DNA from: Desulfobacterales bacterium CG2_30_60_27 | GTDB lineage: Bacteria; Desulfobacterota; Desulfobulbia; Desulfobulbales; CG2-30-60-27 | Length of the DNA: 64,000 bases | Assembly: GCA_001873115.1 (NCBI GenBank) | Contig: MNYK01000110.1 | Location: forward strand, 23,118-87,117 | Reading direction: 5' to 3' | Shown: piece by piece, positions 18,334 through 40,916 of the stretch | How positions within the stretch are numbered: position 1 is the stretch's first letter | Layout of the letters: each line of letters opens with the position of its first letter | The notes under the pieces: generated by a model | What the model saw: the letters and a program-made list of their open reading frames with translations, nothing else | What the model was told of the DNA's origin: nothing | Databases searched by the model: none | Program-made: the position numbers and the translations under genes

Positions 18334-19770
18334 TTACGGCGCATCATGGCAAAGGCCGCAATCCTGGGTGATGGTCTTGCCCTCCGTCGTGGCATGTTCC
18401 TCGTCATGACAACGCCAGCAGCCATAGCCTTCGTCGGCATACTGGTGCCCCAGGTGGCCCTTGTAGGTGCCCCATTGGATATTCATCTCTGGCCAGACGT
18501 TGGCCATATAGACTTCCAGGAGAAACTCTCCGGCCTTCCCGAGGTCGGCCTCGTGCTGTTTGGCGGTGCCGGGGTCGCGCAGGGTCTGCAAGGCGATAAG
18601 GGCGTCCACCATTTTGGCCTGTGCCTCCTTGCGGGTTGTGTACTGGCTGGTCACGACCGTGAGGCTGTCTTCCCGGATGCCTGGAATTTCAGGGTTGATG
18701 CGCCGGCTGAGCAGGCCGAAATCCACCCGTTCCTCGGGCATCTGATAGACGTGGGTCGGTCGGTTGTGGCAATCGATGCAATCCATGGTCCGCCATTGGT
18801 GTTCCTGGTCCTCCTTGACCTCGGCCAGGTCGCTTTTCACGAACTCTTCCTCGCTGCCGTCGGGCCTGGTCACCTTGACCCGGGCGATCTTGGTCCGCCT
18901 TTCGTCCTCGGCCAGATATTTTACCTGGACATTTTTGCTCACATGCCAGTGGATGCCCTCGAAGGCGTCGGTTTCAGGATTGCGACCGCCGATATGCAGA
19001 GCAATCTCGGTCACCTCTGGCTTGCTCTGGTCGGCGTTGGTGAAGCGTTTGAAGGTCTTGACCTTTTTGCCGTGGAATTTCTCTGGCCAATGGCAGGTCT
19101 CGCAGGTATCGCGGGCCGGGCGCAGATGCTCCACCGGGGCGGGAATCGGCCGGGAGTAGCTGTTGGTGAAAATCGCCACCACCTGCCGGAGGCCGGAGAT
19201 CTTGGCGCGCACGAACCAGTCGGCGCCCGGGCCGATATGGCATTCCACGCAGACTACCCGGGCGTGGGGGGAGCGCTGATAGACCGTGTACTCCGGTTCC
19301 ATGACCTGGTGGCAGACCTGGCCGCAGAAATAGGCGGAGTCGCTGAAGTGATAGCCCTCGTAAGCGACCATGGCAAAGATGCAGACATTGATCACCGTAA
19401 GCACCATGAAACCAATCACCCAGCGCCGATGGCTGTGATCGCTAAGGTTAAGTGTCAGGTGCTCCCTGGATATCCCATACTTGTACCACTTGCGTCGCCG
19501 CAGAAAGGCGGCAATGGGAATCAGGGCCAGCCCGGTGAGCATCAGGCCCGGCAGGATGAGGTAGGTAAAGAAGCCCGCATAGGGGTTGTTAAAAAATCCC
19601 AGCAGGTCCACCGCCATGCCGATCACCAGCAGGGTGGCGCTGATAGTGGTGATGGTAACGCCCATCAGCCCCAAGGGCGACCGCCACATGCCGCGGATGA
19701 TGTGGCCCCACGGCCCTTGGTGCTGCGCTTCATTATTATCTTTTGCCTGTTTACCGGTGTCCTCTGTCAT
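18334..19770 (-). CDS. Membrane-anchored multiheme cytochrome c (NapC/NirT/NrfH-like N-terminal module plus extended periplasmic domain)
   Basis: ORF 18334..19842. Three N-terminal TM helices. Heme motifs CVECH, CETCH, CIDCH, CWRCH and CGLCH, plus an atypical CGQVCH (CX3CH). Likely start is MTEDTGK (19770), preceded by GGGAGAAGG. Confidence 0.85.
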   Translation of the reverse strand: MTEDTGKQAKDNNEAQHQGPWGHIIRGMWRSPLGLMGVTITTISATLLVIGMAVDLLGFFNNPYAGFFTYLILPGLMLTGLALIPIAAFLRRRKWYKYGISREHLTLNLSDHSHRRWVIGFMVLTVINVCIFAMVAYEGYHFSDSAYFCGQVCHQVMEPEYTVYQRSPHARVVCVECHIGPGADWFVRAKISGLRQVVAIFTNSYSRPIPAPVEHLRPARDTCETCHWPEKFHGKKVKTFKRFTNADQSKPEVTEIALHIGGRNPETDAFEGIHWHVSKNVQVKYLAEDERRTKIARVKVTRPDGSEEEFVKSDLAEVKEDQEHQWRTMDCIDCHNRPTHVYQMPEERVDFGLLSRRINPEIPGIREDSLTVVTSQYTTRKEAQAKMVDALIALQTLRDPGTAKQHEADLGKAGEFLLEVYMANVWPEMNIQWGTYKGHLGHQYADEGYGCWRCHDEEHATTEGKTITQDCGLCHDAP

Positions 19771-19855
19771 CACCTTCTCCCATGCTGGAAATTTTTTTTG
19801 CTTATGCCATGCGCAACCACCTCGGGAGGCGGGCATGGCCACTCCGTAATCGACC

Positions 19856-29353: not shown

Positions 29354-29438
29354 GTTAGGTGGATAGACTGTAGGGGTTCAGTCTGTTAGCAATTGATATT
29401 ACCTAACAGACTACAGTCTAGACAACCTGAGTGGTTAC
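29354..29438. repeat. Family-B MITE, short/left-truncated copy
   Basis: AGGTGGATAGACTGTAGG...CTGTTAGC / CTAACAGACTACAGTCTAGACAACCTGAGTGGTTAC. The right terminus is intact and overlaps the moeA stop codon. Confidence 0.6.
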
Positions 29439-30646
29439 CTGAAATCAAAGGAATAAACCAAAACGCGCTCTCCTGGTTGGATCGCCTGCCCAGGCTCCAT
29501 GATGATATAGCCATCACTGTCCACCAGGGAAGTCAACATGTGCGAGCCCTGCCTTGCAGCGCTGGTGGCGGCATAGCCGCCGTCCGCATCGCAGGTCATC
29601 CGCACCCGGAGCATATTGGGCCGGCCGCCCTTGTTGACAATCTCCTCCCCCACTTGCGCGAAGACTATCGGCCAGCCGAAGGACAAGCCGCGGATGGCGC
29701 CGATCAGCGGCCGCACATAGTGGGTGAAACACATGAAGGCCGAGACCGGATTGCCGGGCAGCCCGAAAAGGAGGGTCTTGCCCTTTCTGGCCAGATAGAG
29801 AGGCTTGCCCGGTTTCTGGCGGATCCTCCAGAAGAGGGGGGTAAAGCCGTTCTCCTCGGCCGCCTCCTTGACATGATCATGCCGGCCTACCGAGACGCCG
29901 CCGGTGCAGAGGATGATATCTGCCGCCGCCTGGCCGATGGCCGCTACCGTGGCCTGCCGGTCGTCGGTGATCCTGGCACGGGAGACCAGTTGCGCTCCAG
30001 TCTCCAGTACCGCCGCCCGCAACATGGTCATGTTGGAATCCCGAATCTGATGGTCGGCAATGGCCGAGCCTGCGGCGATCAACTCCGAACCGGTGGCCAG
30101 CAGGGCGACATCACAGGGTTTGAAGACCTTGACCCGAGCAATGCCCACCGCCGCCAGCAGCGCCGCTTGGGGCGCCGCGATCCTGGCTCCCAAGCGTAGC
30201 AAAAGGTCGCCCGTGCCAAACTCCTCGCCACGCTGCCGAACATCTTGTCCCAACCGCTTGGCCACGTTGATGATCACGCTCTGCCCGGCCTCCCGGGTAT
30301 CTTCCACCCGGATTACTGTATCGACCCCATCGGGAAGCATCGCCCCGGTGCTGATCCGCACGGCACAGCCCGCACCCACGGTCCCGGAAAAAGGGACTCC
30401 CGCCCGGCTTTCGCCGATGATTGCAAGAGTCGCGGGCCTCTCCAGGCTCAGGTCGCGGACATCCCCCCAGCGCACGGCATAGCCGTCCATCGCCGAATTG
30501 GTATAGCGGGGCGAGGGTTCGGGAGCCTGGATGTCCTCGGCCAGGTAACGGCCCAGGGCCTGATCGAGCGGGCATTCCTCCACCACCGGGGCCGGAATAT
30601 TCGCCTTGATGATGGCGATTGCTTCACTGATGGAAATCATGGTCAT
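29435..30646 (-). CDS. moeA: Molybdopterin molybdenumtransferase MoeA
   Basis: About 400 aa with MoeA domain order. Motifs SAMDGYAV, TGGVSVGRHDHV, GLPGNPVSA. Confidence 0.9.
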   Translation of the reverse strand: MTMISISEAIAIIKANIPAPVVEECPLDQALGRYLAEDIQAPEPSPRYTNSAMDGYAVRWGDVRDLSLERPATLAIIGESRAGVPFSGTVGAGCAVRISTGAMLPDGVDTVIRVEDTREAGQSVIINVAKRLGQDVRQRGEEFGTGDLLLRLGARIAAPQAALLAAVGIARVKVFKPCDVALLATGSELIAAGSAIADHQIRDSNMTMLRAAVLETGAQLVSRARITDDRQATVAAIGQAAADIILCTGGVSVGRHDHVKEAAEENGFTPLFWRIRQKPGKPLYLARKGKTLLFGLPGNPVSAFMCFTHYVRPLIGAIRGLSFGWPIVFAQVGEEIVNKGGRPNMLRVRMTCDADGGYAATSAARQGSHMLTSLVDSDGYIIMEPGQAIQPGERVLVYSFDFR

Positions 30647-30720: not shown

Positions 30721-31629
30721 TTAGTGTCCCTTGCCCTGCATCATCGGGAAGATGTGCAACAGTCCGGGGAAGAGAGCCTGCATGCTTTCGAGTGCGCCCT
30801 TGGAGCTGCCGGGCAGGTTGATGATCAAACACTCACCGCGCAGACCGGCCTCGCCTCGGGAGAGCATGGCGTATGGGGTTCGCTCCTTACCGTGCTGACG
30901 GATGGCAAGGGCGATGCCGGGCACGGTCCGGTCAAGGACGGCAATGGTCGCCTCCGGGGTGACATCGCGCGGCCCCAGGCCCGTGCCGCCGGTGGTGAAC
31001 ACCAGTTGGAACCCTTCCTCGTCGGCCAGCTTTTTGAGGCGAGCAATGATGGCCTCGCGATCATCCGGCAGGATCTCATAGCAATCAACCGCCACCGGTT
31101 GATTGGTCAAGAATGCCGCGATCACCTTCCCGGACTTGTCCTCGCGCTTGCCGGCATGGGTGGAATCGGACATCACCAGGATCGCGGTCTTGACCGGAGT
31201 GGGGAAGCGGTCGCTGAAATCGCTTTTACCGCCTTTCTTTTTCACCACCCTTATCTCACCGAAGGAGAGATTCTGGTCCAGCGGTTTCAGCATATCGTAG
31301 GCGTTGAGCAGGGCGCCGGTGACGGCGGTGATTGCCTCGACCTCCACCCCGGTTTTCCAGACCGAACGAACTTCGGCCGAGACCCGAATGCCCTGGTCGT
31401 GCTCCTCCAGCCGCACCTCGATCCAATCCAGGGGGATGGGGTGGCAGAAGACGATCAGATCGCTGCAATGCTTGGCGGCCAGGATGCCGGCGGCCCGGGC
31501 CACTTCGAGCACATCGCCCTTGGGTACCGTCCTGGCAAAGACCCGGCGCAGAACCTCGGGACTGCCATACAAAAAACCCTCGGCCAGGGCGGAGCGCAGG
31601 GTATGAAACTTGTGGCTGACATCGAACAT
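30721..31629 (-). CDS. moaC: Bifunctional cyclic pyranopterin monophosphate synthase MoaC / MoaB(Mog)-type molybdopterin adenylyltransferase domain
   Basis: N-terminal half is MoaC (KGDVLEVARAAGILAAKHCSDLIVFCHP). C-terminal half is MogA/MoaB (FTTGGTGLGPRDVTPEA). Confidence 0.85.
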   Translation of the reverse strand: MFDVSHKFHTLRSALAEGFLYGSPEVLRRVFARTVPKGDVLEVARAAGILAAKHCSDLIVFCHPIPLDWIEVRLEEHDQGIRVSAEVRSVWKTGVEVEAITAVTGALLNAYDMLKPLDQNLSFGEIRVVKKKGGKSDFSDRFPTPVKTAILVMSDSTHAGKREDKSGKVIAAFLTNQPVAVDCYEILPDDREAIIARLKKLADEEGFQLVFTTGGTGLGPRDVTPEATIAVLDRTVPGIALAIRQHGKERTPYAMLSRGEAGLRGECLIINLPGSSKGALESMQALFPGLLHIFPMMQGKGH

Positions 31630-31665: not shown

Positions 31666-32697
31666 TCACCCCCCGATGCTGGCCATGGTGGGGGGGGTAG
31701 CCCTACGGCAGTTTGCCTCGGTCGCCAGGCCGTCCCGATAACGGTGGCTGACCACGGCCCTGACGGCGGCGGTGATCTCGTGGTCGGCGGCGTTGGACCG
31801 CAGCATGGCCTTCAGGTCTAGGACGCCGTTGTCGTAAAGACAGGTCTTCAGCATACCGGTTGGCGTGATCCGGATCTTGTTGCAGGTGGCGCAGAAGCGG
31901 CGGGAGTTGCCTTCAATCAGACCGATGGTGCCGGCAAAGCCAGGAATGGCATAAAGTCTGGCGGTGGCCGGCACGCCCGTCACCAGCGGAAGCATGGCCG
32001 GGAACAGGTGATGCAAACGGTCGCGCAGCGATCGGTTCGTTTGCGGCCGCACGTCGGGCGTGCCCGAGAAAGGCATTTTTTCAATAAAGCGCAAACACAG
32101 CGGGTGACGTTCTGGGAGTTCGGCCAGGGCCAGAATCTCGGCATCCGTAGTGTCTTCCAGGACCACGGCATTGATTTTGAGCGGCAGGCGGCGCACAATA
32201 CAGCCGTCCAGGGTGGCCAGCACCTCGGCCAGGTGGTCCCGCCGGGAGATCTGCTGGAAACGGTTGCGGTCCAAGGTGTCGAGGCTGAGGTTGATGCCGG
32301 CGATGCCCAGTGCGGCCAGCTCGTCGAGATAGCGGAGGGTCTTCACGCCGTTGGTGGTAATGTGCAGGGAACTTACCGTATCCATGCCCTGCAAGCGCCA
32401 CATGAACGGCAGGCAATCGCGCCGGGCAAAGGGCTCGCCGCCGGTGATGCGGATCTTGGAAAGCCCCAGGGCCGACAGCAGCCGCACCAGGCGTTCGAGT
32501 TCTTCAAAGGAAAGCATCTCCGCATGGGGTACGAAATCGACCCCGCATAAAGGCATGCAATACCGGCAGCGCAGGTTGCAACGGTCAGTGATGGCCAGTC
32601 GCAGATAGGTGATCTGTCGGCCATAATTGTCGGTCAGGCTGTCGATGCGATGGGCTCGGGAATGGGGGAGGGGATTCCCCCGCTGTGGCGCTGTCAT
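31666..32697 (-). CDS. moaA: GTP 3',8-cyclase MoaA (radical SAM)
   Basis: CNLRCRYC radical-SAM triad, C-terminal CATCNKIRITPTG auxiliary cluster motif, terminal GG. Confidence 0.9.
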   Translation of the reverse strand: MTAPQRGNPLPHSRAHRIDSLTDNYGRQITYLRLAITDRCNLRCRYCMPLCGVDFVPHAEMLSFEELERLVRLLSALGLSKIRITGGEPFARRDCLPFMWRLQGMDTVSSLHITTNGVKTLRYLDELAALGIAGINLSLDTLDRNRFQQISRRDHLAEVLATLDGCIVRRLPLKINAVVLEDTTDAEILALAELPERHPLCLRFIEKMPFSGTPDVRPQTNRSLRDRLHHLFPAMLPLVTGVPATARLYAIPGFAGTIGLIEGNSRRFCATCNKIRITPTGMLKTCLYDNGVLDLKAMLRSNAADHEITAAVRAVVSHRYRDGLATEANCRRATPPTMASIGG

Positions 32698-33148: not shown

Positions 33149-36100
33149 TCAGGCCTTGACCAGGTTGACCCTGGTCTCGTTGAACGAGGCGCTACCACCG
33201 ATCGGGTCGGTCATGCAGGAATTTTTGAGCACCGGGTCGATCTTCATGGCCGCGTTCGGGCAGAGACCGGCGGTGCGTCGTTTGTCACCCTTGACCGTCT
33301 TACCGTCGATGGTGGCGTCGGAGGCGCCGTAGCCCCAGTGGCCGAACGACCAGGAGACCGCGATCGTCTTCGGCCTCATCCCTTCCACCGCCTTGATCTT
33401 GCCGACCATGTCCACCCCTGGCCGGTTGGGCAAATGCCATTTGCCGTCCGGACTGGACTTGGAGACGAGCCGCGCCTTGTCACCGTCCTTGAAACCCATC
33501 GACCCGGCGGTGGCGGCATTGATCAGAATGAAATTCTCCGGCAGGATGGAGCTGAGCCAATAGTTGCCGGGGAGGGTGCGGGACTGGCCGCCCAGGATTT
33601 CCTTATAGGTAATAAGCTGCAAAGGCAGATCGCTATCCACCGCCGGATTACCAGCGGCATCCGTCGGCGTTTTGTAGGTGGCGCTACCGGAGAACCGTTT
33701 GCCGGTGAACGAATGCTTGGCCTTGGCCACGGTCTCGGCGTAAAGATTCAACTGTTTGCCGTATTTCTTTCCTAGCATGCCATCACCGCTTACCACCGCC
33801 GGGTCCCAATTTTTCCACCTGCCGCCCCGGTTGAGAACGGTAACGGTCTTTTTCCACTTGTCTGAGCCCACGGCCTTTTCCCAGCGGTCCGCGGAGAAGA
33901 TCGTGGGCTGCAGGTGCTGGCGGGCCTCGTTGAAGAGCTTCAGCTCGTTAAAGGAGGCATCGGGCACCGCGTCCCCGTCCTTGTCACCCACGGCCATGTT
34001 GGCGGCGAGCTTCAGATACCAGTCTTCCTGCCGGTTCAGATCCCAGCCGGTGCTGAAGCCGTCCTTGCCAAAGCCGGGTATATGCAACTGCTCGGCAATG
34101 GCCAGGGCCACCGTCTCGAAGGAACTGTGCATCTTTTCGCCGTACACGGTCACCACCTCGGTCAGCGGGGTGATGGTCGGTTGCCGGAATTTGGAGACCG
34201 GATAAGGTACGTCAGGAGAGGCGTGGGGAGTGGCAAAACGCTCCCAGATGGCGGCGTCGGGAAAGATATAGTCGGCATACATACTGGTCTCGCCGATGAC
34301 GATGTCCGTCGAGAAAAAGAGCGGGATCTTCGCGGTATCGGCCAGGATCGCCAGCGCCGTCTGTCCTGCCGGGGCCGCGAATCCCGGGCTGCCCATATGC
34401 AGCCAGACGGCCTTTGCCGTGTACGGATAGCCGTCGGCCGCCGAGGGCAGGGCCTCTTGATAGATATTGCTGGTGAACGGGAACCACGGGCGCTTGGCGG
34501 GATAACCGGTAAACAGGGTCGATTTTTCGTAGGTCGAGCCCTCGCGGGTGATCTTGTGGCCAAAGGGGGTCAGTTTGCCCGGCTGCATCTTGTTGACGTT
34601 GAACTGGGCCTCGGCCTTGTCGCCGAACTCGTGCCAGTGACCGCCGCCGACAGACATGCCGCCCTTGTGATCGGTATTACCGATGAGGATGTTCAGGGCG
34701 ATAAGCGCCTGGGCATTGTAGTAGCCGCTGGTATGCTTCACTGGGCCGCGGTAAAACTCGACCCCGGCCTTCTTGCCATGGGAGGTGAACTCCTTGGCTA
34801 CCAACTCGATGTCGGCGGTTGGTATGCCACAGATCTCCGACCACTGGTCGATGGTCTTAACCAAGGCCTCTTCCTTCAAGATGGTGAAGGCGGTCTTGAC
34901 CTTGACACCATTGATCTCGCCGCTAAAATCGAGGTCGCCAACCACGGCGTTCTTGTCGTCATCAGTCTTGACCGCCACCGGCTTGCCGCCTTGGACGACG
35001 ACGAAGCTGTCCTTGTCGCCTGCCCCGAGCTCTTCGGCCCGCGCCAGGGCACCGGGGCCGTCTTTTTCGATCTTCACCAAATGGGTGGCGTCAGACCAGG
35101 TGGTTTCGCCGGCTGCCTTGGCAGCGGCCAGGTTGGCGGCGGTCAGATATTTTTCGTCATAGCGTTTGTTGCCGATCATCCACTGGATCATGGCCAGGGC
35201 CAGGGCGGCATCGGTGGATGGTTTTACCGGCAACCATTTCCAGGCCCGGGAGGCGGACTTGCTCATCCGCGGGTCGACGACGATGACCTTGAGCCGGCCG
35301 GCAACCAGCCCATCGGTCACCTTGGGACACATGGCCGGCGGCCCGAAGTTGGCCTCGATGAAACCGGTCCCGAAATAGATGATGCACTCGGCGTTGAAGG
35401 AATCCGGCTTCATATGGGTGATGCCGGCCGACCACTTGCCTTCCTTGTACTGGTTGGTGGCCTCCTTGTAGGCGATATGGTGGGATTGCTCGCAAATGCT
35501 GGTGTGTTCGATAATATTGTTGGAGCCGAACCCACCGTGCATGAAGCGCTTGCCGAACTCGATCCGGCCATGCTCGATCCGGCCCCACATGCCGACGAAC
35601 TGGTTGTTTTTCGGGCCCAGGTCCGGGTGCTCCGGATCGATCAGTTTGTCGAGGTGGGCGCTATATTTACCCTTGAAGTCCGCCACCTTCATCTTGCCGG
35701 CGGCAACCTCCTTGACATCGGCTTCCATGGCGGCGGAGAGTTTGGCGTCGTTCATGGCGTACAGTTCTTTCAAGCCGGGCACCCGACGGTTTTCCCCTAT
35801 ACCCTTGAACAGCTCGCCGCCGTTCACGATCTCCGAGATCGCCTTGTCGAAGGCGACGATCTCCCACCGGTTGGAGCCGCGGGGGCCTTTGCGTTTAAGA
35901 ACCTTCACCACCCGATAGGGGTCGTAAAGACTCTGGATGCCGGCCTGGCCCTTGGGGCAGAGCCCGGCGTCGATCTTCGCCGCCTTGGCCGGGGCCGTAT
36001 CGTAGTTGAGATTGGGGATCAGGTTTTCGCTGAACGGATTGCCATCGATCTTGACCGCGACGCCGTTTAGAATCTTGACCTTGATCGGGCAGGCGGTATG

Positions 36101-36340
36101 GCATTGCAAACAGGCCGAGTAGATGACGCTGGTCGCCTTGGCCAGGGGATAATCGCCGGCCCCGGCCACGCCCGATTCCATGGCGTGGAGAAGATTATAA
36201 GCGCCGTCGATCTGGTTCATCAGCACCGCGCAACCGCCAAGCAGGGCGGATGATTTAAGGACGGTCCGGCGCGAGATCTTCATCTGGGAACATGCAGCCA
36301 CGCAGTCGTCTGCCTGGCATGTTTTTTTGGTATCAGTCAT
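33149..36340 (-). CDS. Tat-exported molybdopterin oxidoreductase catalytic subunit, ~1060 aa (TtrA-size; substrate unknown)
   Basis: ORF 33149..36610, trimmed to MTDTKK (ATG 36340, AGGAGGAGG RBS, 17 nt after the B-subunit stop). Twin-arginine SRRTVLK. N-terminal FS0 motif CLQCHTAC...C. MopB domains throughout. Confidence 0.85.
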   Translation of the reverse strand: MTDTKKTCQADDCVAACSQMKISRRTVLKSSALLGGCAVLMNQIDGAYNLLHAMESGVAGAGDYPLAKATSVIYSACLQCHTACPIKVKILNGVAVKIDGNPFSENLIPNLNYDTAPAKAAKIDAGLCPKGQAGIQSLYDPYRVVKVLKRKGPRGSNRWEIVAFDKAISEIVNGGELFKGIGENRRVPGLKELYAMNDAKLSAAMEADVKEVAAGKMKVADFKGKYSAHLDKLIDPEHPDLGPKNNQFVGMWGRIEHGRIEFGKRFMHGGFGSNNIIEHTSICEQSHHIAYKEATNQYKEGKWSAGITHMKPDSFNAECIIYFGTGFIEANFGPPAMCPKVTDGLVAGRLKVIVVDPRMSKSASRAWKWLPVKPSTDAALALAMIQWMIGNKRYDEKYLTAANLAAAKAAGETTWSDATHLVKIEKDGPGALARAEELGAGDKDSFVVVQGGKPVAVKTDDDKNAVVGDLDFSGEINGVKVKTAFTILKEEALVKTIDQWSEICGIPTADIELVAKEFTSHGKKAGVEFYRGPVKHTSGYYNAQALIALNILIGNTDHKGGMSVGGGHWHEFGDKAEAQFNVNKMQPGKLTPFGHKITREGSTYEKSTLFTGYPAKRPWFPFTSNIYQEALPSAADGYPYTAKAVWLHMGSPGFAAPAGQTALAILADTAKIPLFFSTDIVIGETSMYADYIFPDAAIWERFATPHASPDVPYPVSKFRQPTITPLTEVVTVYGEKMHSSFETVALAIAEQLHIPGFGKDGFSTGWDLNRQEDWYLKLAANMAVGDKDGDAVPDASFNELKLFNEARQHLQPTIFSADRWEKAVGSDKWKKTVTVLNRGGRWKNWDPAVVSGDGMLGKKYGKQLNLYAETVAKAKHSFTGKRFSGSATYKTPTDAAGNPAVDSDLPLQLITYKEILGGQSRTLPGNYWLSSILPENFILINAATAGSMGFKDGDKARLVSKSSPDGKWHLPNRPGVDMVGKIKAVEGMRPKTIAVSWSFGHWGYGASDATIDGKTVKGDKRRTAGLCPNAAMKIDPVLKNSCMTDPIGGSASFNETRVNLVKA

Positions 36341-36357
36341 TGCCTGCCTCCTCCTTG

Positions 36358-37140
36358 TTATTGATGGCATTCTGTGCAGGTGATCGGCGTGCCGACCGCG
36401 ATATTCTTCCGATCCTCGAAGCCGATGTAATGGATACGGGGGTTGGTGCCAAGCTCGCTCTTGACCTGCCAGGTTTTCTCGTTCTTCAACAGTTCGGAGA
36501 CGAGGCTTGTCGGGTCGTTTTGGTCGCCGAAGTACATGGCCCGACCGATACAGGTGGAGACGCAAGCGGGGAGCATACCGCTCTCCAGACGATGACCACA
36601 GAAAGTGCATTTACGGATTGTGCCGGTCAGGCCGCCGCTGCCGCGGCTCAAGGTTCGGCCGTTTTCAAAGAAATTCCGCAATTCATAGGGTTCCATGACC
36701 GGGGTGTTATCAGTATAAAACCCCCCCTTGTCCTCGACGATGGCATAGTAAGGGCATGCCTTCTTGGCCGCGTCGCCCGCCTTTTTGTTCTTGGCCAGTT
36801 TGGCGTAGTCGAATTCAACGATGCCGTCCCCGCGTTTGATGATGGCGTCCTTGGTCACCGCGTTGGCGGCCTTCTGGCAGGGCGGCTTGTCGCAATGCTG
36901 GCAGTTGGCCGGCATGAAGAACCGGTTCAGGTCAGGGAAACTGTTGTGTTCGGTCTCGAACACCTTGCGGTACGAGGTGCCAGGCGGACAGACATTCTCC
37001 GCCATGCAGGAAACCGCGCAGGCGTGATCCCCCACGCATTTGCGGGTATCGATGACCATTATCCAGGATCTCTGCTCCAGGGGCTTGGCCAGGGCCCGTT
37101 CCAGGTCCTCGTGCATCCTGACAATCTCGTTTATTGCCAT
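36358..37140 (-). CDS. Fe-S electron-transfer subunit (DmsB/PsrB/TtrB family) with only three predicted clusters
   Basis: ORF 36358..37197, trimmed to MAINEIV (ATG 37140, AAAGGAGGAAGG RBS). Cys groups: CVGDHACAVSC, CQHCDKPPCQKAA, ...ACPYYA, CTFCGH..ACVSTC. Confidence 0.85.
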   Translation of the reverse strand: MAINEIVRMHEDLERALAKPLEQRSWIMVIDTRKCVGDHACAVSCMAENVCPPGTSYRKVFETEHNSFPDLNRFFMPANCQHCDKPPCQKAANAVTKDAIIKRGDGIVEFDYAKLAKNKKAGDAAKKACPYYAIVEDKGGFYTDNTPVMEPYELRNFFENGRTLSRGSGGLTGTIRKCTFCGHRLESGMLPACVSTCIGRAMYFGDQNDPTSLVSELLKNEKTWQVKSELGTNPRIHYIGFEDRKNIAVGTPITCTECHQ

Positions 37141-37324
37141 ACCTTCCTCCTTTGACCTTGATGGCCTGTTGCTCGAATCCAACATCTTGACCTTCACGGA
37201 ATTTCCTGTTTCGATCAGGTTTACCAGCCTGGCAATCTCCGGAAAGCATAGCAGGTCACCCCGGAGAAAAAGTTAGACTCTGCTGCCAGAGGCGCAGGCA
37301 TGAAACCATAACCTTACATATTTT

Positions 37325-37614: not shown

Positions 37615-38310
37615 CTACCGCACGGCTCCGACCGGCCTTGCTTTTGAGAAAAGGCCAAGGCGCAGGGTCAATTCCACCAACTCCGCCTTGGTGTCCAGCC
37701 CAAGCTTGATCATGGCCCGCGAGCGATAGGTAGCAACGGTCTTTTCACTCAGGTATTCCTGTAGGGCAATCTCCTTGCTGGTGTGTCCCTGGGCCACCGC
37801 CAGCATCACCTGGCGCTCGCGCGGGCTCAGGGCGGCCCACAACACGCTGTCTTTATCCTCTATCACCGAGGCCGTCGTTGTCGCCGTCTGCCCTGCGAGG
37901 TACTGCTGCACCATGAACGGCTGAATGAAAATCTCACCCCGCATGACTGAACGGATGGCATAGAGAAGATCCACATCCAGCCCCTTTTTGAGGACAAAGC
38001 CGGCAGCGCCCCGTGCCATGGCCAACTGCAGGTATTGCTGGTCTTCGTGCATGGTGAGCATCATGATCCGCGAAGCCGGCGACCGCTCTTGCAAGGCCGG
38101 CAGGAGATCCAGGCCACTGGTGTCACCAAGGGCGATATCCAAAAGAATCACGTCGGGTCGCAATTGCCCGGCCAGGGCGACGGCCTCTCCAGCGCGGGAT
38201 GTGCGGCCCACTACCCGCATGTCTGCTTCCGCATCGAGCAGCATGCACAACCCGGCAAGCAGGAGGGCATGGTCGTCCACCACCATGACCGAAACTTTCT
38301 TTGTGCTCAT
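37615..38310 (-). CDS. NarL/LuxR-family response regulator
   Basis: REC (VMVVDDH...DVILLDIALGD) plus a C-terminal LuxR HTH (LSPRERQVMLAVAQGHTSKEIALQEYLSEKTVATYRSR). 4-nt overlap with the HK gene. Confidence 0.9.
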   Translation of the reverse strand: MSTKKVSVMVVDDHALLLAGLCMLLDAEADMRVVGRTSRAGEAVALAGQLRPDVILLDIALGDTSGLDLLPALQERSPASRIMMLTMHEDQQYLQLAMARGAAGFVLKKGLDVDLLYAIRSVMRGEIFIQPFMVQQYLAGQTATTTASVIEDKDSVLWAALSPRERQVMLAVAQGHTSKEIALQEYLSEKTVATYRSRAMIKLGLDTKAELVELTLRLGLFSKARPVGAVR

Positions 38311-39800
38311 TGGGCTTTTTTCCTCACGGCCGGGACTTCAAAAATCACCATGGTGCCTTCGCCAGGAGCGGACTGCATGCTGAAACTGCCGCCGAGCAAC
38401 AGGGAGCGCTCTTCCATGCCGTAAAGCCCCAAGCCAGCGGCATGCGAACAACAGGCGTCAAAGCCGATCCCGTCGTCTTCCACCACCCCGCGCAAGCGGT
38501 CACCACGCCACTCCAGGATGACCTTGACCTCGAGAGCCATGGCGTGCTTGACCGCATTGGTCAAGGCCTCTTGAATAATTCTGTAGACGCAGGTTTCCAC
38601 CGCCACATCGGGCCGCTGCCCCTCGAACCCCAAGTTTACCATAGTGGCATTAATTTTAAATTTATTTCTAAAATCACCAAGATACCGGTCGAGAGCCGCC
38701 AACAGGCCCATGTCGTCCAGCACACTGGGCCGCAATTCCACGGCAAGATCATGCAGCGCATCCATTTCGTCGGTGATAGCCGAACGTAACCGGGTTATCC
38801 CGGTCAGAAATTGCTCCCGATCTTCGGCCCGCTCCAAGACTTTCAACTCCAACATAAACGAGGCAAGAGCCTGGCCGCTCTGGTCATGCAATTCCCTGGC
38901 AATGCGTTTCCTCTCTCCCTCCTGGGTTGCAATAATCCGCTGCAAAAATTCCTTGCGGATGCTTTCCTTTTCATCTCTTTCGGCCTGAGCCTTCTTGAGC
39001 TGCCTGGCCATGCTGTTGAAGGCATCTATCAGTTGGCCCACTTCATCCTTGGCCGCATCCACCACCTGGATGTTGAAGTCACCCCGCCTGATGGATTGTG
39101 TGGCGGCAACCAGTTTCTTGATCGGCCGCATGATGAGCCAGGTCAGGATGCCGCTGCAGATAATGGCCAGACCAAACACGGCCATGGTGTTGGCCAGCAA
39201 GGATTGTAAAAACTCACCATTTTCCCGACGTGAAGGGGCTTCGGCCAATCCCACCCTGAGGCCGCCAGCAATGCCGGGGCCAAACGGGGCAAAGGCGTCC
39301 CATACCGCGCCTTCATTGGTAAGGAGTTTGCGCGGCGAACTCCCCCAAGGATTATCTTTGCCAGTCAACCGCAAGAGATCTCCAGGAAAGCCTCCCGTAA
39401 AGCTATGGCAGAGGACATGGCCGGCATCGTCCACGATAAAGGCATACCGCAGAGCCGGGCGGTTGTGCACGGCGTTTTTCAACAGATTGGTCAAGCCGTA
39501 AAGGTCATCGATCAACACACTTTCACGGGCGTGGGCCGAAAGTTCAACCGCGAGCAACTGGCTTTGATTTTGTAACTGAATGGCCATGGTGGCCGTAAGG
39601 TTATTGTGGACCCGGACTATGGTGAAGCCGGCAAAAATCATGATCAGGCCCACGGCCATGCCCATGATTTTCAACCGGAGCGGGACGCCCAAAAAAAACT
39701 GCGGCAGACTTTGCGCAGGAGCGCGAAGCAGGCGGCCGAGCCGCCGCAAGCCATCAACGCTCCATACCAGCATCCTTGGTGACCAGGCAGTAACTTTCAT
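38307..39800 (-). CDS. Sensor histidine kinase (2 TM + periplasmic domain, HAMP, HisKA_3, HATPase_c; NarX/TtrS-like)
   Basis: HAMP PIKKLVAATQSIRRGDF, H-box RIARELHDQSGQAL (HisKA_3 type), GLGLYGMEER. Confidence 0.85.
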   Translation of the reverse strand: MKVTAWSPRMLVWSVDGLRRLGRLLRAPAQSLPQFFLGVPLRLKIMGMAVGLIMIFAGFTIVRVHNNLTATMAIQLQNQSQLLAVELSAHARESVLIDDLYGLTNLLKNAVHNRPALRYAFIVDDAGHVLCHSFTGGFPGDLLRLTGKDNPWGSSPRKLLTNEGAVWDAFAPFGPGIAGGLRVGLAEAPSRRENGEFLQSLLANTMAVFGLAIICSGILTWLIMRPIKKLVAATQSIRRGDFNIQVVDAAKDEVGQLIDAFNSMARQLKKAQAERDEKESIRKEFLQRIIATQEGERKRIARELHDQSGQALASFMLELKVLERAEDREQFLTGITRLRSAITDEMDALHDLAVELRPSVLDDMGLLAALDRYLGDFRNKFKINATMVNLGFEGQRPDVAVETCVYRIIQEALTNAVKHAMALEVKVILEWRGDRLRGVVEDDGIGFDACCSHAAGLGLYGMEERSLLLGGSFSMQSAPGEGTMVIFEVPAVRKKAQ

Positions 39801-40699
39801 TAAGGCGCGTAGAGATTGGCTGGCGGCACCACAAAGCGGTCAATGGCCAACTTTTCAAGGGCCGCCTTGCCGGACGGAGATTCGTGGACGGCCAGAAAGA
39901 ACGCCAGCAGCTTTTCCTTTAGTTCAGGGCTGATCTGTCGAGGCACGACCACCGGCGGCATGCCAAACTCCCCGGATTCCCATATAACTCTGGTTTTTTT
40001 TCTTATCTCGCTGTCTCTCTGCCTGGCGTTTTCATAGATCAGATTATCCACCGAGGCACAATTGACCACGCCTTCCATGACTGCAGCAATGGAACGCTCG
40101 TGACTGTGGGTAAAAATGGAACTGCTGAAAAAGGTTTCCGGTTGTTCCCCTCTTCTGCTGAGTTCGCTGACCGGGCACAGGTATCCTGTGTTGGACATGG
40201 GGTCGGTGAAGGCAAAGGACTTCCCCCGCAAATCTTCCAGGCTGTTATAGTCCGATCCAGCCGGGACAATGAGGAGCGCCTTGTAGGTTGTCTTACCGTT
40301 AATTTCCGGGACCACCAGAAGCGACATAATGCCTTGCCGCTGCCCTTCCAGATAAGCCCCGGTGCAGATAAAGGCAAGGTCCACCACGCCCCGGGCGAGG
40401 AGGTCGTTGATTTCCTGATAGGTGCGGCGCTGCACAAGCTGGATGGTTCTACCCATCCGGTCGCCGAGGAGGTCGAGCAATGGCCGGTAGGATTGCACAT
40501 TGCCCTGCGGTGAAAGAATGGCGGCCACGGCCACCTTGAGCAGATTTTTTTCCGGAACCGTTTCCCTGGCGGGCAATGGGGCCAGCTTGTCCAATCTGAC
40601 CAGCGGCTCAGCCTCGGGCGACACTTTCTCCGACCGATGACAGCCGCCAGTCGACAATAACAGGAAAAGGATGGGCGCCAGGGTCAGTATGGCACGCAT
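39800..40699 (-). CDS. Periplasmic PhnD-family (phosphonate/oxyanion-type) substrate-binding lipoprotein, probable sensor partner
   Basis: ORF 39800..40798. Likely start is MRAILTLAPILFLLLSTGGC (lipobox, ATG 40699). PhnD-like core with TYQEINDLLARGVVDLAF and FAFTDPMSNTGY. Its stop overlaps the HK start. Confidence 0.8.
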   Translation of the reverse strand: MRAILTLAPILFLLLSTGGCHRSEKVSPEAEPLVRLDKLAPLPARETVPEKNLLKVAVAAILSPQGNVQSYRPLLDLLGDRMGRTIQLVQRRTYQEINDLLARGVVDLAFICTGAYLEGQRQGIMSLLVVPEINGKTTYKALLIVPAGSDYNSLEDLRGKSFAFTDPMSNTGYLCPVSELSRRGEQPETFFSSSIFTHSHERSIAAVMEGVVNCASVDNLIYENARQRDSEIRKKTRVIWESGEFGMPPVVVPRQISPELKEKLLAFFLAVHESPSGKAALEKLAIDRFVVPPANLYAP

Positions 40700-40778
40700 C
40701 GATCTCTTGGAAAAGCATGAAGTCCAAGGTGAATGCTTAAACCTCTTATTATTCATTGCAATCATACTCGAGCCTCTG

Positions 40779-40916
40779 ATGTTCCATGGACTCATCATAC
40801 GGATGTACTATGCGCCAGACCAGCACCCGCCGCCGCATTTTCATGTGTACTACCATGTATCCTGCAGTGCGCGGGTTGGGGTGAGCTTGCGAACCCCAAC
40901 ATTAAGGCATCGATAA
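40779..40916 (+). pseudogene. Truncated DUF4160-family gene remnant
   Basis: MFHGLIIRMYYAPDQHPPPHFHVYY matches the N-terminal signature of DUF4160 proteins. Only about 45 codons are present, and the reading frame ends in a GTTGGGGT...ACCCCAAC hairpin. Confidence 0.45.

Follow-up and report, generated by a model that had tools for sequence, protein, structure and literature searches.

We examined a 64,000-nt stretch of contig MNYK01000110.1 from Desulfobacterales bacterium CG2_30_60_27, termed the window, whose minus strand carries adjacent genes for an iron-sulfur subunit, B (36358-37140), and a molybdenum or tungsten (Mo/W) catalytic subunit, A. Both belong to the families of TtrBCA- and SrdBCA-type enzymes. 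B was found to lack the four ligands of one [4Fe-4S] cluster and to end in CxxCH, and these two traits recur together in a large clade of homologues whose genes adjoin the A gene directly, with no gene for a membrane anchor in between. These data are probably best explained if B transfers electrons within a soluble two-subunit enzyme of the periplasm that belongs to the TtrA/SrdA family and from which the anchor and the distal cluster (FS4) have gone and to which a CxxCH tail has been added. This family comprises tetrathionate, selenate and alternative arsenate reductases (PMC10100899, PMC13490349).

The B gene (36358..37140, minus strand) encodes a 260-aa iron-sulfur electron-transfer protein with the TtrB/PsrB/ArrB fold, three cluster sites and a C-terminal CxxCH. 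Its ATG start at 37140 is preceded by a strong ribosome-binding site, AAGGAGGAAGG, and the N-terminus, MAINEIVRMHEDLERAL..., agreed with the N-termini of homologues in the alignment. The database copy (P0001) is a 279-aa protein from an open reading frame (ORF) at 36358-37197 with an upstream GTG start. As the ATG at 37140 has a ribosome-binding site and fits all of the homologue N-termini, it is probably the better start and the GTG call over-extended. A signal peptide was absent from the N-terminus of the 260-aa window protein. Long antisense ORFs overlie the B and A genes (36292-37155, 287 aa, and 33914-36070, 718 aa, both on the plus strand); with a G+C content of 59%, these are most likely artefacts and not genes. 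A Fer4_11 domain (PF13247) was detected in B by Pfam with 72 bits against a cut-off of 26.2, and the best NCBIfam models were TtrB, ArrB and DsrO, all scoring far below their cut-offs (122.1 versus 416 bits for the TtrB equivalog, NF011569). A single-sequence AlphaFold2 model was discarded due to its predicted local distance difference test (pLDDT) score of 33, and the model from a multiple sequence alignment, with a pLDDT of 93.7, was used instead. The best Foldseek matches of this model were ArrB (E value of 4.5e-20) and PsrB (2.4e-19), followed by the beta subunit of transhydroxylase. Judged by its domain and its two-ferredoxin-domain fold, B is a beta subunit of the complex iron-sulfur molybdoenzyme type.

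All of the motifs listed by the first-pass annotation of this DNA, namely, an Asp in Cys group I, an Ala at the fourth position of group II, a group III reduced to its last Cys, an intact group IV and a CxxCH end, were present in the translation (all coordinates on the minus strand). Group I, C35-VG-D38-HA-C41-AVS-C45 (37006..37038), supplies C35, D38 and C41 to the proximal cluster FS1 and C45 to FS2. Group II, C80-QH-C83-DKPP-C88-QKA-A92 (36865..36903), supplies three Cys to FS3 and has an Ala at its FS4 position (II4). The degenerate group III, K119...G122...A125...C129-P130 (36751..36786), has lost the FS4 ligands III1 to III3 and retains C129 as the fourth ligand of FS3; the stretch separating C88 from C129 is devoid of Cys, and predicted helices at 112-117 and 119-128 span this region. 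Group IV, C178-TF-C181-x11-C193-VST-C197 (36550..36609), is intact and provides FS2 ligands and the fourth ligand of FS1 (C197). The C-terminal C255-T-E-C258-H259 (36364..36378), a candidate site for covalent haem c, lies at the very end of the protein, with just Q260 before the stop codon. B has 14 Cys in total, of which 11 occupy canonical ligand positions and, together with D38, make up 12 positions or three clusters. Four-cluster beta subunits have four groups with 16 ligands; those missing from B are II4 and III1 to III3.

In NarH, FdnH and DmsB, cluster FS4 is ligated by Cys1 to Cys3 of group III together with Cys4 of group II, lies farthest from the catalytic subunit and adjoins the membrane subunit, as seen in the NarGHI and Fdh-N structures. 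Knowledge of these proteins and the pattern seen in FdhB support the assignment of the cluster lost from B as the distal FS4. In an alignment with FdhB of Desulfovibrio vulgaris (6sdr_B/8rc8_B), the latter reads C-RH-C-VEPP-C-KGQ-A and then ...SVRSACPY, the same loss as in B. In the crystal structure of D. vulgaris FdhAB, each of the enzyme's four [4Fe-4S] clusters is ligated by Cys (PMC9774666), a number that leaves one cluster for alpha and three for beta. The earlier suggestion that B hands electrons to a soluble periplasmic partner would be the natural reading of such a loss, Desulfovibrio FdhAB being a precedent with the same four ligands missing from its beta subunit.

Conservation was assessed with a set of 121 sequences consisting of the query and its 120 closest database relatives (50-100% identity). 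Group III Cys1 to Cys3 were missing from all 120 relatives and II4 was Ala in 111 of the 121 sequences, while III4 and the Cys of groups I, II and IV, I2 excepted, were invariant. In the tail, C255 and C258 were each present in 116/121 and H259 in 121/121. A pooled set of 316 B sequences was obtained from 236 database proteins and 80 genome loci (TtrB-type loci from relatives are labelled L001, etc.). A canonical group III (CxxCxxCxxxCP) was present in 130 of these sequences, none of which had a CxxCH tail. Of the 186 sequences without a canonical group III, 175 ended in CxxCH, and in 9 of the other 11 the tail still ended in His (FIASFHP, LSTSMHT, CRRWHP, CKSHHP and similar). The C-terminal ITCTECHQ had been described as an odd ending; it is real, but it is no peculiarity of one gene, CxxCH being the most conserved clade-specific feature. 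More than 170 homologues had the same pattern of loss at 43-85% identity, with the remaining ligands invariant, and residues M76, N79, A91, A92, A124, A125, R155, M202, C255, C258 and H259 were conserved only in the three-cluster clade. The 316-sequence comparison thus bore out the proposal of a coordinated loss rather than random decay, as a large clade has conserved the pattern. This form of B is present in well over a hundred lineages from many bacterial phyla and some archaea. In a search for three-cluster B proteins with a distant member, that of L027, all of the source-named entries among the 120 matches listed were from metagenome-assembled genomes (MAGs) or metagenomes.

The arrangement of the genes was then compared between the two forms. 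In all 23 three-cluster genome loci, A directly followed B with a gap of -232 to 158 nt, the negative values stemming from ORF starts called too far upstream, and none of these loci had an ORF of at least six transmembrane (TM) helices between the two genes. In contrast, the gap between B and A was at least 800 nt in 48 of 50 four-cluster loci, Mesobacillus selenatarsenatis SF-1 being included, and a TtrC-like ORF (6-10 TM helices, ∼400 aa) was detectable in the gap of 41 of them, corresponding to a ttrBCA/srdBCA order. Within the window, no membrane ORF was found between or beside B and A, and the gene cluster containing them had neither a membrane-anchor gene nor a cytochrome gene. The difference between the two types of loci upheld the earlier claim that the lost cluster is the distal one and that its loss fits a missing anchor; the arrangement named beforehand as contrary evidence, a TtrC-like gene beside a homologue with the same pattern, was never seen. 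Nor did the data point to a rebuilt fourth cluster, with Cys51 present in just 60 of 184 three-cluster sequences and the tail offering only two Cys and one His. A family-wide cluster made of Cys51 and the tail Cys was rejected due to the limited occurrence of Cys51 and the lack of a conserved fourth ligand. AB would be a periplasmic heterodimer without a membrane subunit and is predicted to be soluble.

In a neighbour-joining (NJ) tree of B, the four-cluster proteins formed one clade separated by a single split from all three-cluster proteins, and comparison of the sequences places the three-cluster clade as a descendant of four-cluster TtrB-like proteins that worked with TtrC, a quinol-oxidising anchor of the NrfD/PsrC type. 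L027 and L035 were the three-cluster sequences nearest the four-cluster clade, and their subgroup contained 24 intermediates, 12 of which retained II4, III1 and III2 (CxxC) and 12 of which retained II4 only. A CxxCH tail was already present in all 24 (P0130-P0142, P0121-P0129), and B adjoined A without an anchor at the readable loci (L027:7977-8708, L035:7971-8705, L085:7001-7741, L086:6000-6728). As all of the intermediates have the tail and, where readable, lack the anchor, the simplest order of events would be loss of TtrC and gain of the tail followed by stepwise erosion of FS4. The intermediates with II4, III1 and III2 have three Cys at the FS4 site and could possibly hold a [3Fe-4S] cluster.

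The comparison shows that, in this clade, the anchor gene and the four FS4 ligands are gone and a tail of 10-20 residues ending in CxxCH has been added. The mechanism that we propose for the enzyme, predicted to be soluble, is as follows. The AB dimer would assemble in the cytoplasm and be exported by the twin-arginine translocation (Tat) system on the SRRTVLK signal of A. The CxxCH, exposed at the C-terminus, would be loaded with haem by the cytochrome c maturation (Ccm) system in the periplasm, and the haem would pack against the end of B that holds FS3, where Met76 and/or Met202 may provide its sixth ligand. From there, the predicted wire runs through FS3 (C80, C83, C88 and C129), FS2 (C178, C181, C193 and C45) and FS1 (C35, D38, C41 and C197) to FS0 and the Mo/W-bis-pyranopterin guanine dinucleotide (bisPGD) centre of A. 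The haem would replace FS4 and TtrC as a port for periplasmic or membrane-tethered c-type cytochromes. An oxyanion would be reduced at the Mo/W centre of A, with the reverse direction equally possible. The substrate is probably an oxyanion to which the binding protein, kinase and regulator encoded upstream respond, most likely tetrathionate or thiosulfate, with selenate and arsenate as further candidates; a sulfur oxyanion is suggested by family membership, by the PhnD-type sensor encoded upstream and by the porin-O/P-like, TauE and rhodanese neighbours of some relatives.

Whether the tail carries haem is the least certain element of this mechanism, and a covalent haem c site is rated at somewhat below an even chance. 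B has the CXXCH of c-type cytochromes (C255-T-E-C258-H259), and a helix was predicted for residues 253-259 with a pLDDT of ∼75. Haem is favoured by the strict coincidence between gain of the tail and loss of the former electron exit and by the exact CxxCH spacing with its invariant His, in a tail that is helical and not disordered. Ccm System I needs little beyond CXXCH, even in 12-residue peptides (PMC3601427). A Met was present at position 76 or 202 in every CxxCH-tail sequence (both in 125, M76 only in 36, M202 only in 13), as compared to 29/130 four-cluster relatives for Met76 and 0/130 for Met202, and this rule is suggestive at most of a sixth haem ligand. Neither residue was retained as the sole distal ligand: position 202 is Asn in the L027 subgroup, where CxxCH is still found, and in 11 sequences position 76 is occupied by Lys. 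That c-type cytochromes are made by the host is shown by an ORF of 502 aa in the same window (18334-19842, minus strand; adjoining a histidine kinase gene), which has five CxxCH motifs and matches the NapC/NirT family. Its product could pass electrons from quinol to the periplasm. Within the window, ccm and ccs genes were not seen. In one relative (L081:16458-19898), Rieske, cytochrome b and multihaem cytochrome c genes follow, which hints at electron supply by cytochromes, and other relatives have multihaem cytochromes nearby. Class II c-type cytochromes (c' and c556) resemble B in having a single CxxCH near the C-terminus within a helix and a Met elsewhere as a possible sixth ligand; they are, however, Sec-exported four-helix bundles, whereas the tail of B would be a short tag on a Tat-exported iron-sulfur protein, its haem being putative. 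A more far-reaching version, which we put forward tentatively, is that B is a hybrid iron-sulfur/haem c protein that receives its clusters in the cytoplasm, is exported by Tat together with A or, in relatives, on an RR signal of its own, and then acquires a haem at the tail as the port replacing FS4 and the anchor; it would be the first natural Tat-exported c-type cytochrome.

Several observations weigh against these proposals. For the haem, neither Met76 nor Met202 is universal singly, and c-type apocytochromes are normally exported unfolded through Sec (PMC3601427). B has no signal and those homologues that have one carry a twin-arginine signal, so that neither shows the Sec export typical of c-type cytochromes. 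To our knowledge, no natural Tat-exported c-type cytochrome has been established, and Desulfovibrio FdhAB feeds cytochromes with no such tail known to us, so an anchor-less enzyme does not require a haem. No cytochrome partner was conserved in synteny. In ten three-cluster sequences, one or both of the tail Cys were gone with the His kept, implying that either the thioethers are dispensable or the His has another role. With respect to substrate, the best NCBIfam model for A was TtrA (NF011567), with 448.6 bits against an equivalog cut-off of 1750. With respect to a single origin, the three-cluster loci did not form one clade in an NJ tree of the A subunits of L001-L080 but fell in at least three places among the A subunits linked to four-cluster proteins (for example, L005, L006, L012 and L013 beside L033, and L018 beside L047); this disagreement between the A and B trees may be due to subunit exchange, several events or weak resolution.

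The tails lacking one or both Cys were found in Armatimonadota, Rokubacteria and Bipolaricaulota (P0102, P0108, P0109, P0115, P0119, P0192 and P0211 and the B genes of L010 and L021). They read FIASFHP, LSTSMHT, VVEAYHT, CRRWHP, CKSHHP and CSRWH, with F, M, V, Y, W or H in place of the second Cys.

These Cys-less variants mean that the cysteines are not universally essential, which would suit a tail acting without a cofactor, either as a redox-active CxxC dithiol or persulfide swinging arm or as a structural clamp or plug docking on A or on a partner through His259. Such a role is unlikely; in its favour, the likely substrates are sulfur oxyanions, and some relatives have genes for rhodanese, TusA and TauE in their vicinity. 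In periplasmic sulfur enzymes of the SoxY type, moreover, a Cys on a flexible C-terminus serves as the sulfur carrier. A dithiol or persulfide arm would, however, have no need for the CxxCH spacing and invariant His that constitute the haem c signature, and the coincidence of tail gain with loss of both FS4 and TtrC points to electron transfer. An exposed CxxCH in the periplasm is also expected to be a substrate of Ccm (PMC3601427).

An improbable alternative is that C255, C258 and H259, joined in some lineages by the II4 Cys, bind a replacement iron-sulfur cluster or a mononuclear metal at or near the old FS4 site. The distal cluster of [NiFe] hydrogenases, ligated by three Cys and one His in enzymes that also pass electrons to soluble cytochromes, provides a model for such a centre. 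The II4 Cys is retained in 24 CxxCH-tail sequences, 12 of which also retain III1 and III2, making three or four Cys and a His available, and the tail His is more conserved than the tail Cys. In 150 of 174 CxxCH-tail sequences, including window B, II4 and III1 to III3 are nevertheless all gone, and with no further clade-specific Cys, His, Asp or Glu conserved, only three ligands would be on offer. The old FS4 site is filled by the conserved Ala pairs A91/A92 and A124/A125 on two predicted helices. The replacement of C258 by F, M, V, Y or W in Cys-less variants is better suited to porphyrin or hydrophobic packing than to a metal centre.

It is very doubtful that AB is still coupled to the membrane through an NrfD/PsrC-type or other subunit encoded elsewhere, with the tail and the cluster loss as adaptations to this docking. 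Membrane proteins are encoded within several kilobases in a few relatives, but the identifiable downstream membrane genes are for molybdate or sulfite transporters (MFS_MOT1, TauE) and not for NrfD; in the 23 three-cluster loci, B and A are never separated by a membrane gene, and the deleted cluster is the one that contacts the anchor in known structures. Decay of B as a pseudogene, or an error of assembly or ORF calling, with motifs lost at random, can be dismissed, as nothing beyond the unusual motifs themselves speaks for it and it is refuted by conservation, the ORF being intact with a strong ribosome-binding site, a confident model and a conserved operon context.

The first-pass annotation had also singled out the Asp in place of the second Cys of group I. 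The codons for Asp38 (37027..37029) and for a clade-specific extra Cys, Cys51, in a VCPPG motif (36988..36990) both lie on the minus strand. Across 314 sequences, position 38 was Cys in 259, Asp in 53 and Glu in 2, with no other residue observed. All cases of Asp or Glu were confined to a single clade, whose 63 members share at least 63% identity with the query, and parsimony on the NJ tree required at least nine changes from Cys to Asp or Glu inside that clade. Cys51 was present in 53 of the 55 Asp/Glu38 sequences and in no sequence outside the clade (homologues P0002-P0068). Hence, the Asp is real but it is not a lone substitution, as it alternates with Cys and Glu within a single sub-clade and is coupled to Cys51. 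The restriction to Cys, Asp and Glu argues that Asp38 still ligates iron, as a putative carboxylate ligand of a four-iron FS1; a [3Fe-4S] cluster is less likely, since its site would accept any residue. The coupling suggests that Cys51 is either permissive for the loss of Cys38, perhaps by altering the surroundings of the cluster, or its replacement as a ligand. The same motif, CxxDxxC, with Asp at the position of the second Cys, occurs in the Asp-ligated [4Fe-4S] ferredoxin of Pyrococcus furiosus. B differs from the Asp-ligated ferredoxins in that its site is the proximal cluster of a multi-cluster wire and is coupled to an extra Cys six residues past the fourth Cys.

The A gene (33149..36340, minus strand) starts 17 nt past the B stop codon and encodes a catalytic subunit of 1063 aa, of the Mo/W-bisPGD type and the TtrA/SrdA family. 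It has a Molybdopterin domain, the FS0 motif CxxCxxxC...C and a Cys that aligns with the Cys ligating the metal in ArrA. Four-cluster loci have A subunits that share 41-57% identity with it, the value being 48% for that of L070, the B-anchor-A operon of the SrdBCA organism M. selenatarsenatis. The twin-arginine motif in its signal peptide, S-R-R-T-V-L-K, is encoded at 36254..36274 (minus strand); as B has no signal of its own, it must be co-exported with A. Many distant B homologues have their own RR signals, e.g., RRAFLK, RREFMK and RRNFFK. A Cys-rich N-terminal stretch of the A signal peptide (C8, C13 and C17) was dropped from consideration, not being conserved in homologues.

Upstream of B, genes on the minus strand encode a response regulator of the NarL/LuxR type (37615..38310), a HAMP/HisKA_3 sensor histidine kinase (38307..39800) and a periplasmic PhnD-type (Phosphonate-bd) binding protein (39800..40798), the last being the probable oxyanion sensor partner of the kinase. 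A trio of binding protein, kinase and regulator is also present upstream of many TtrBCA-type loci. The window shares a regulator of the NarL/LuxR type with many TtrBCA-type loci, and several three-cluster loci have one of the sigma-54 activator type (L004, L027, L035, L081 and L084 were compared). Downstream of A, the minus strand carries genes for molybdenum cofactor synthesis, namely, those for MoaA (31666-32697), a MoaC-MoaB/Mog fusion (30721-31629) and MoeA (29435-30646), and neighbours similar to this moa/moe set were found in relatives. An ORF of ∼340 aa just 5′ of B in L008 (L008:3755-4777) had a weak match to phosphate-selective porin O/P, and ORFs of similar size in L011 (L011:889-1899) and L035 (L035:6934-7950) had no Pfam match. 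Sulfur-related neighbours, a TauE/SafE sulfite exporter and a rhodanese, were seen in some relatives (L035:11925-12737 and L085:11301-12236 are among the recurrent accessory ORFs).

The locus can be compared with several known systems. TtrBCA of Salmonella, SrdBCA of M. selenatarsenatis and the Ttr-type arsenate reductases belong to the same families as A and B, with B preceding A. Their A subunits share with ours the Tat signal, the FS0 motif and the Cys metal ligand, and the sensor trio is found upstream. The window locus differs from TtrBCA in having no TtrC and a B subunit with three cluster sites instead of four, a CxxCH tail and an Asp at FS1. FdhAB of Desulfovibrio exchanges electrons with periplasmic cytochromes, and we know of no CxxCH tail in FdhB, although its C-terminus was not read. 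The FdhAB proteins of D. vulgaris and D. gigas (6SDR, 1H0H) are soluble periplasmic W/Mo enzymes of the alpha-beta type with no membrane subunit and, as in B, with Ala at II4, III1 to III3 absent and the Cys-Pro of III4 kept; unlike AB of the window, they belong to the formate dehydrogenase family and have a selenocysteine ligand and full Cys ligation. As B groups with TtrB-like proteins and A is TtrA-like, the cluster losses of B and FdhB are independent and convergent. ArrAB of Shewanella ANA-3 (6CZ7) is likewise an AB enzyme that is soluble in the periplasm, and its electrons come from a tetrahaem cytochrome in the membrane; its ArrB is the best match of B in both sequence and fold but retains the full set of four clusters and lacks a CxxCH tail. 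The beta subunit of transhydroxylase (4V4C), the third-best fold match of B, is a three-cluster protein of an anchor-less enzyme of the dimethyl sulfoxide reductase family. The idea of a shortened electron wire in an anchor-less enzyme therefore holds, but the design is not new in kind, with FdhAB and transhydroxylase as precedents. The pyrogallol-phloroglucinol transhydroxylase is cytoplasmic, has an extra C-terminal beta-barrel domain and no CxxCH, and its clusters are thought to lie outside net electron transfer.

Ttr homologues without TtrC have already been recorded in genomes and proteomes (PMC9751629, PMC13490349, PMC8528874), 'TtrAB lacking TtrC' being mentioned without explanation in two of these papers (PMC9751629, PMC13490349), and a novel lineage near TtrA/SrdA has been seen in MAG phylogenies (PMC10100899). 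For the proteins from Dissulfuribacter, Desulfobulbus, Desulfoluna and other sources that are described as 'TtrAB lacking TtrC', membership in the three-cluster clade could not be confirmed. Nothing relevant was found in the searchable literature on CxxCH in TtrB-like proteins or on natural Tat-exported c-type cytochromes. Relative to that literature, the CxxCH/His tail, its all-or-none tie to anchor loss, the series of intermediates and the coupling of Cys38/Asp/Glu to Cys51 appear to be unreported.

The intermediates provide a rare stepwise view of the shortening of a respiratory wire, the number of FS4 ligands falling from four to three, to one and to none, with all of the non-canonical steps tailed. 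The switching between Cys, Asp and Glu at FS1 together with Cys51 represents a natural experiment in the tuning of cluster potential. If the tail binds haem, B would be an exception to the rule of Sec export for c-type cytochromes, and nature would offer, in the tail, a minimal equivalent of the 'haem tags' that have been engineered onto C-termini. Genes for Ttr/Srd-type enzymes serve more and more often as markers of tetrathionate, selenate and arsenate respiration and of sulfur disproportionation. On the sequences compared here, the forms without an anchor make up a coherent clade of wide distribution that is recognisable by the absence of group III Cys1 to Cys3 and the presence of a C-terminal CxxCH. 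The natural reading is that these forms use or feed the periplasmic cytochrome pool and not the quinone pool, and such coupling would change how energy yield and reaction direction are modelled from genomes.

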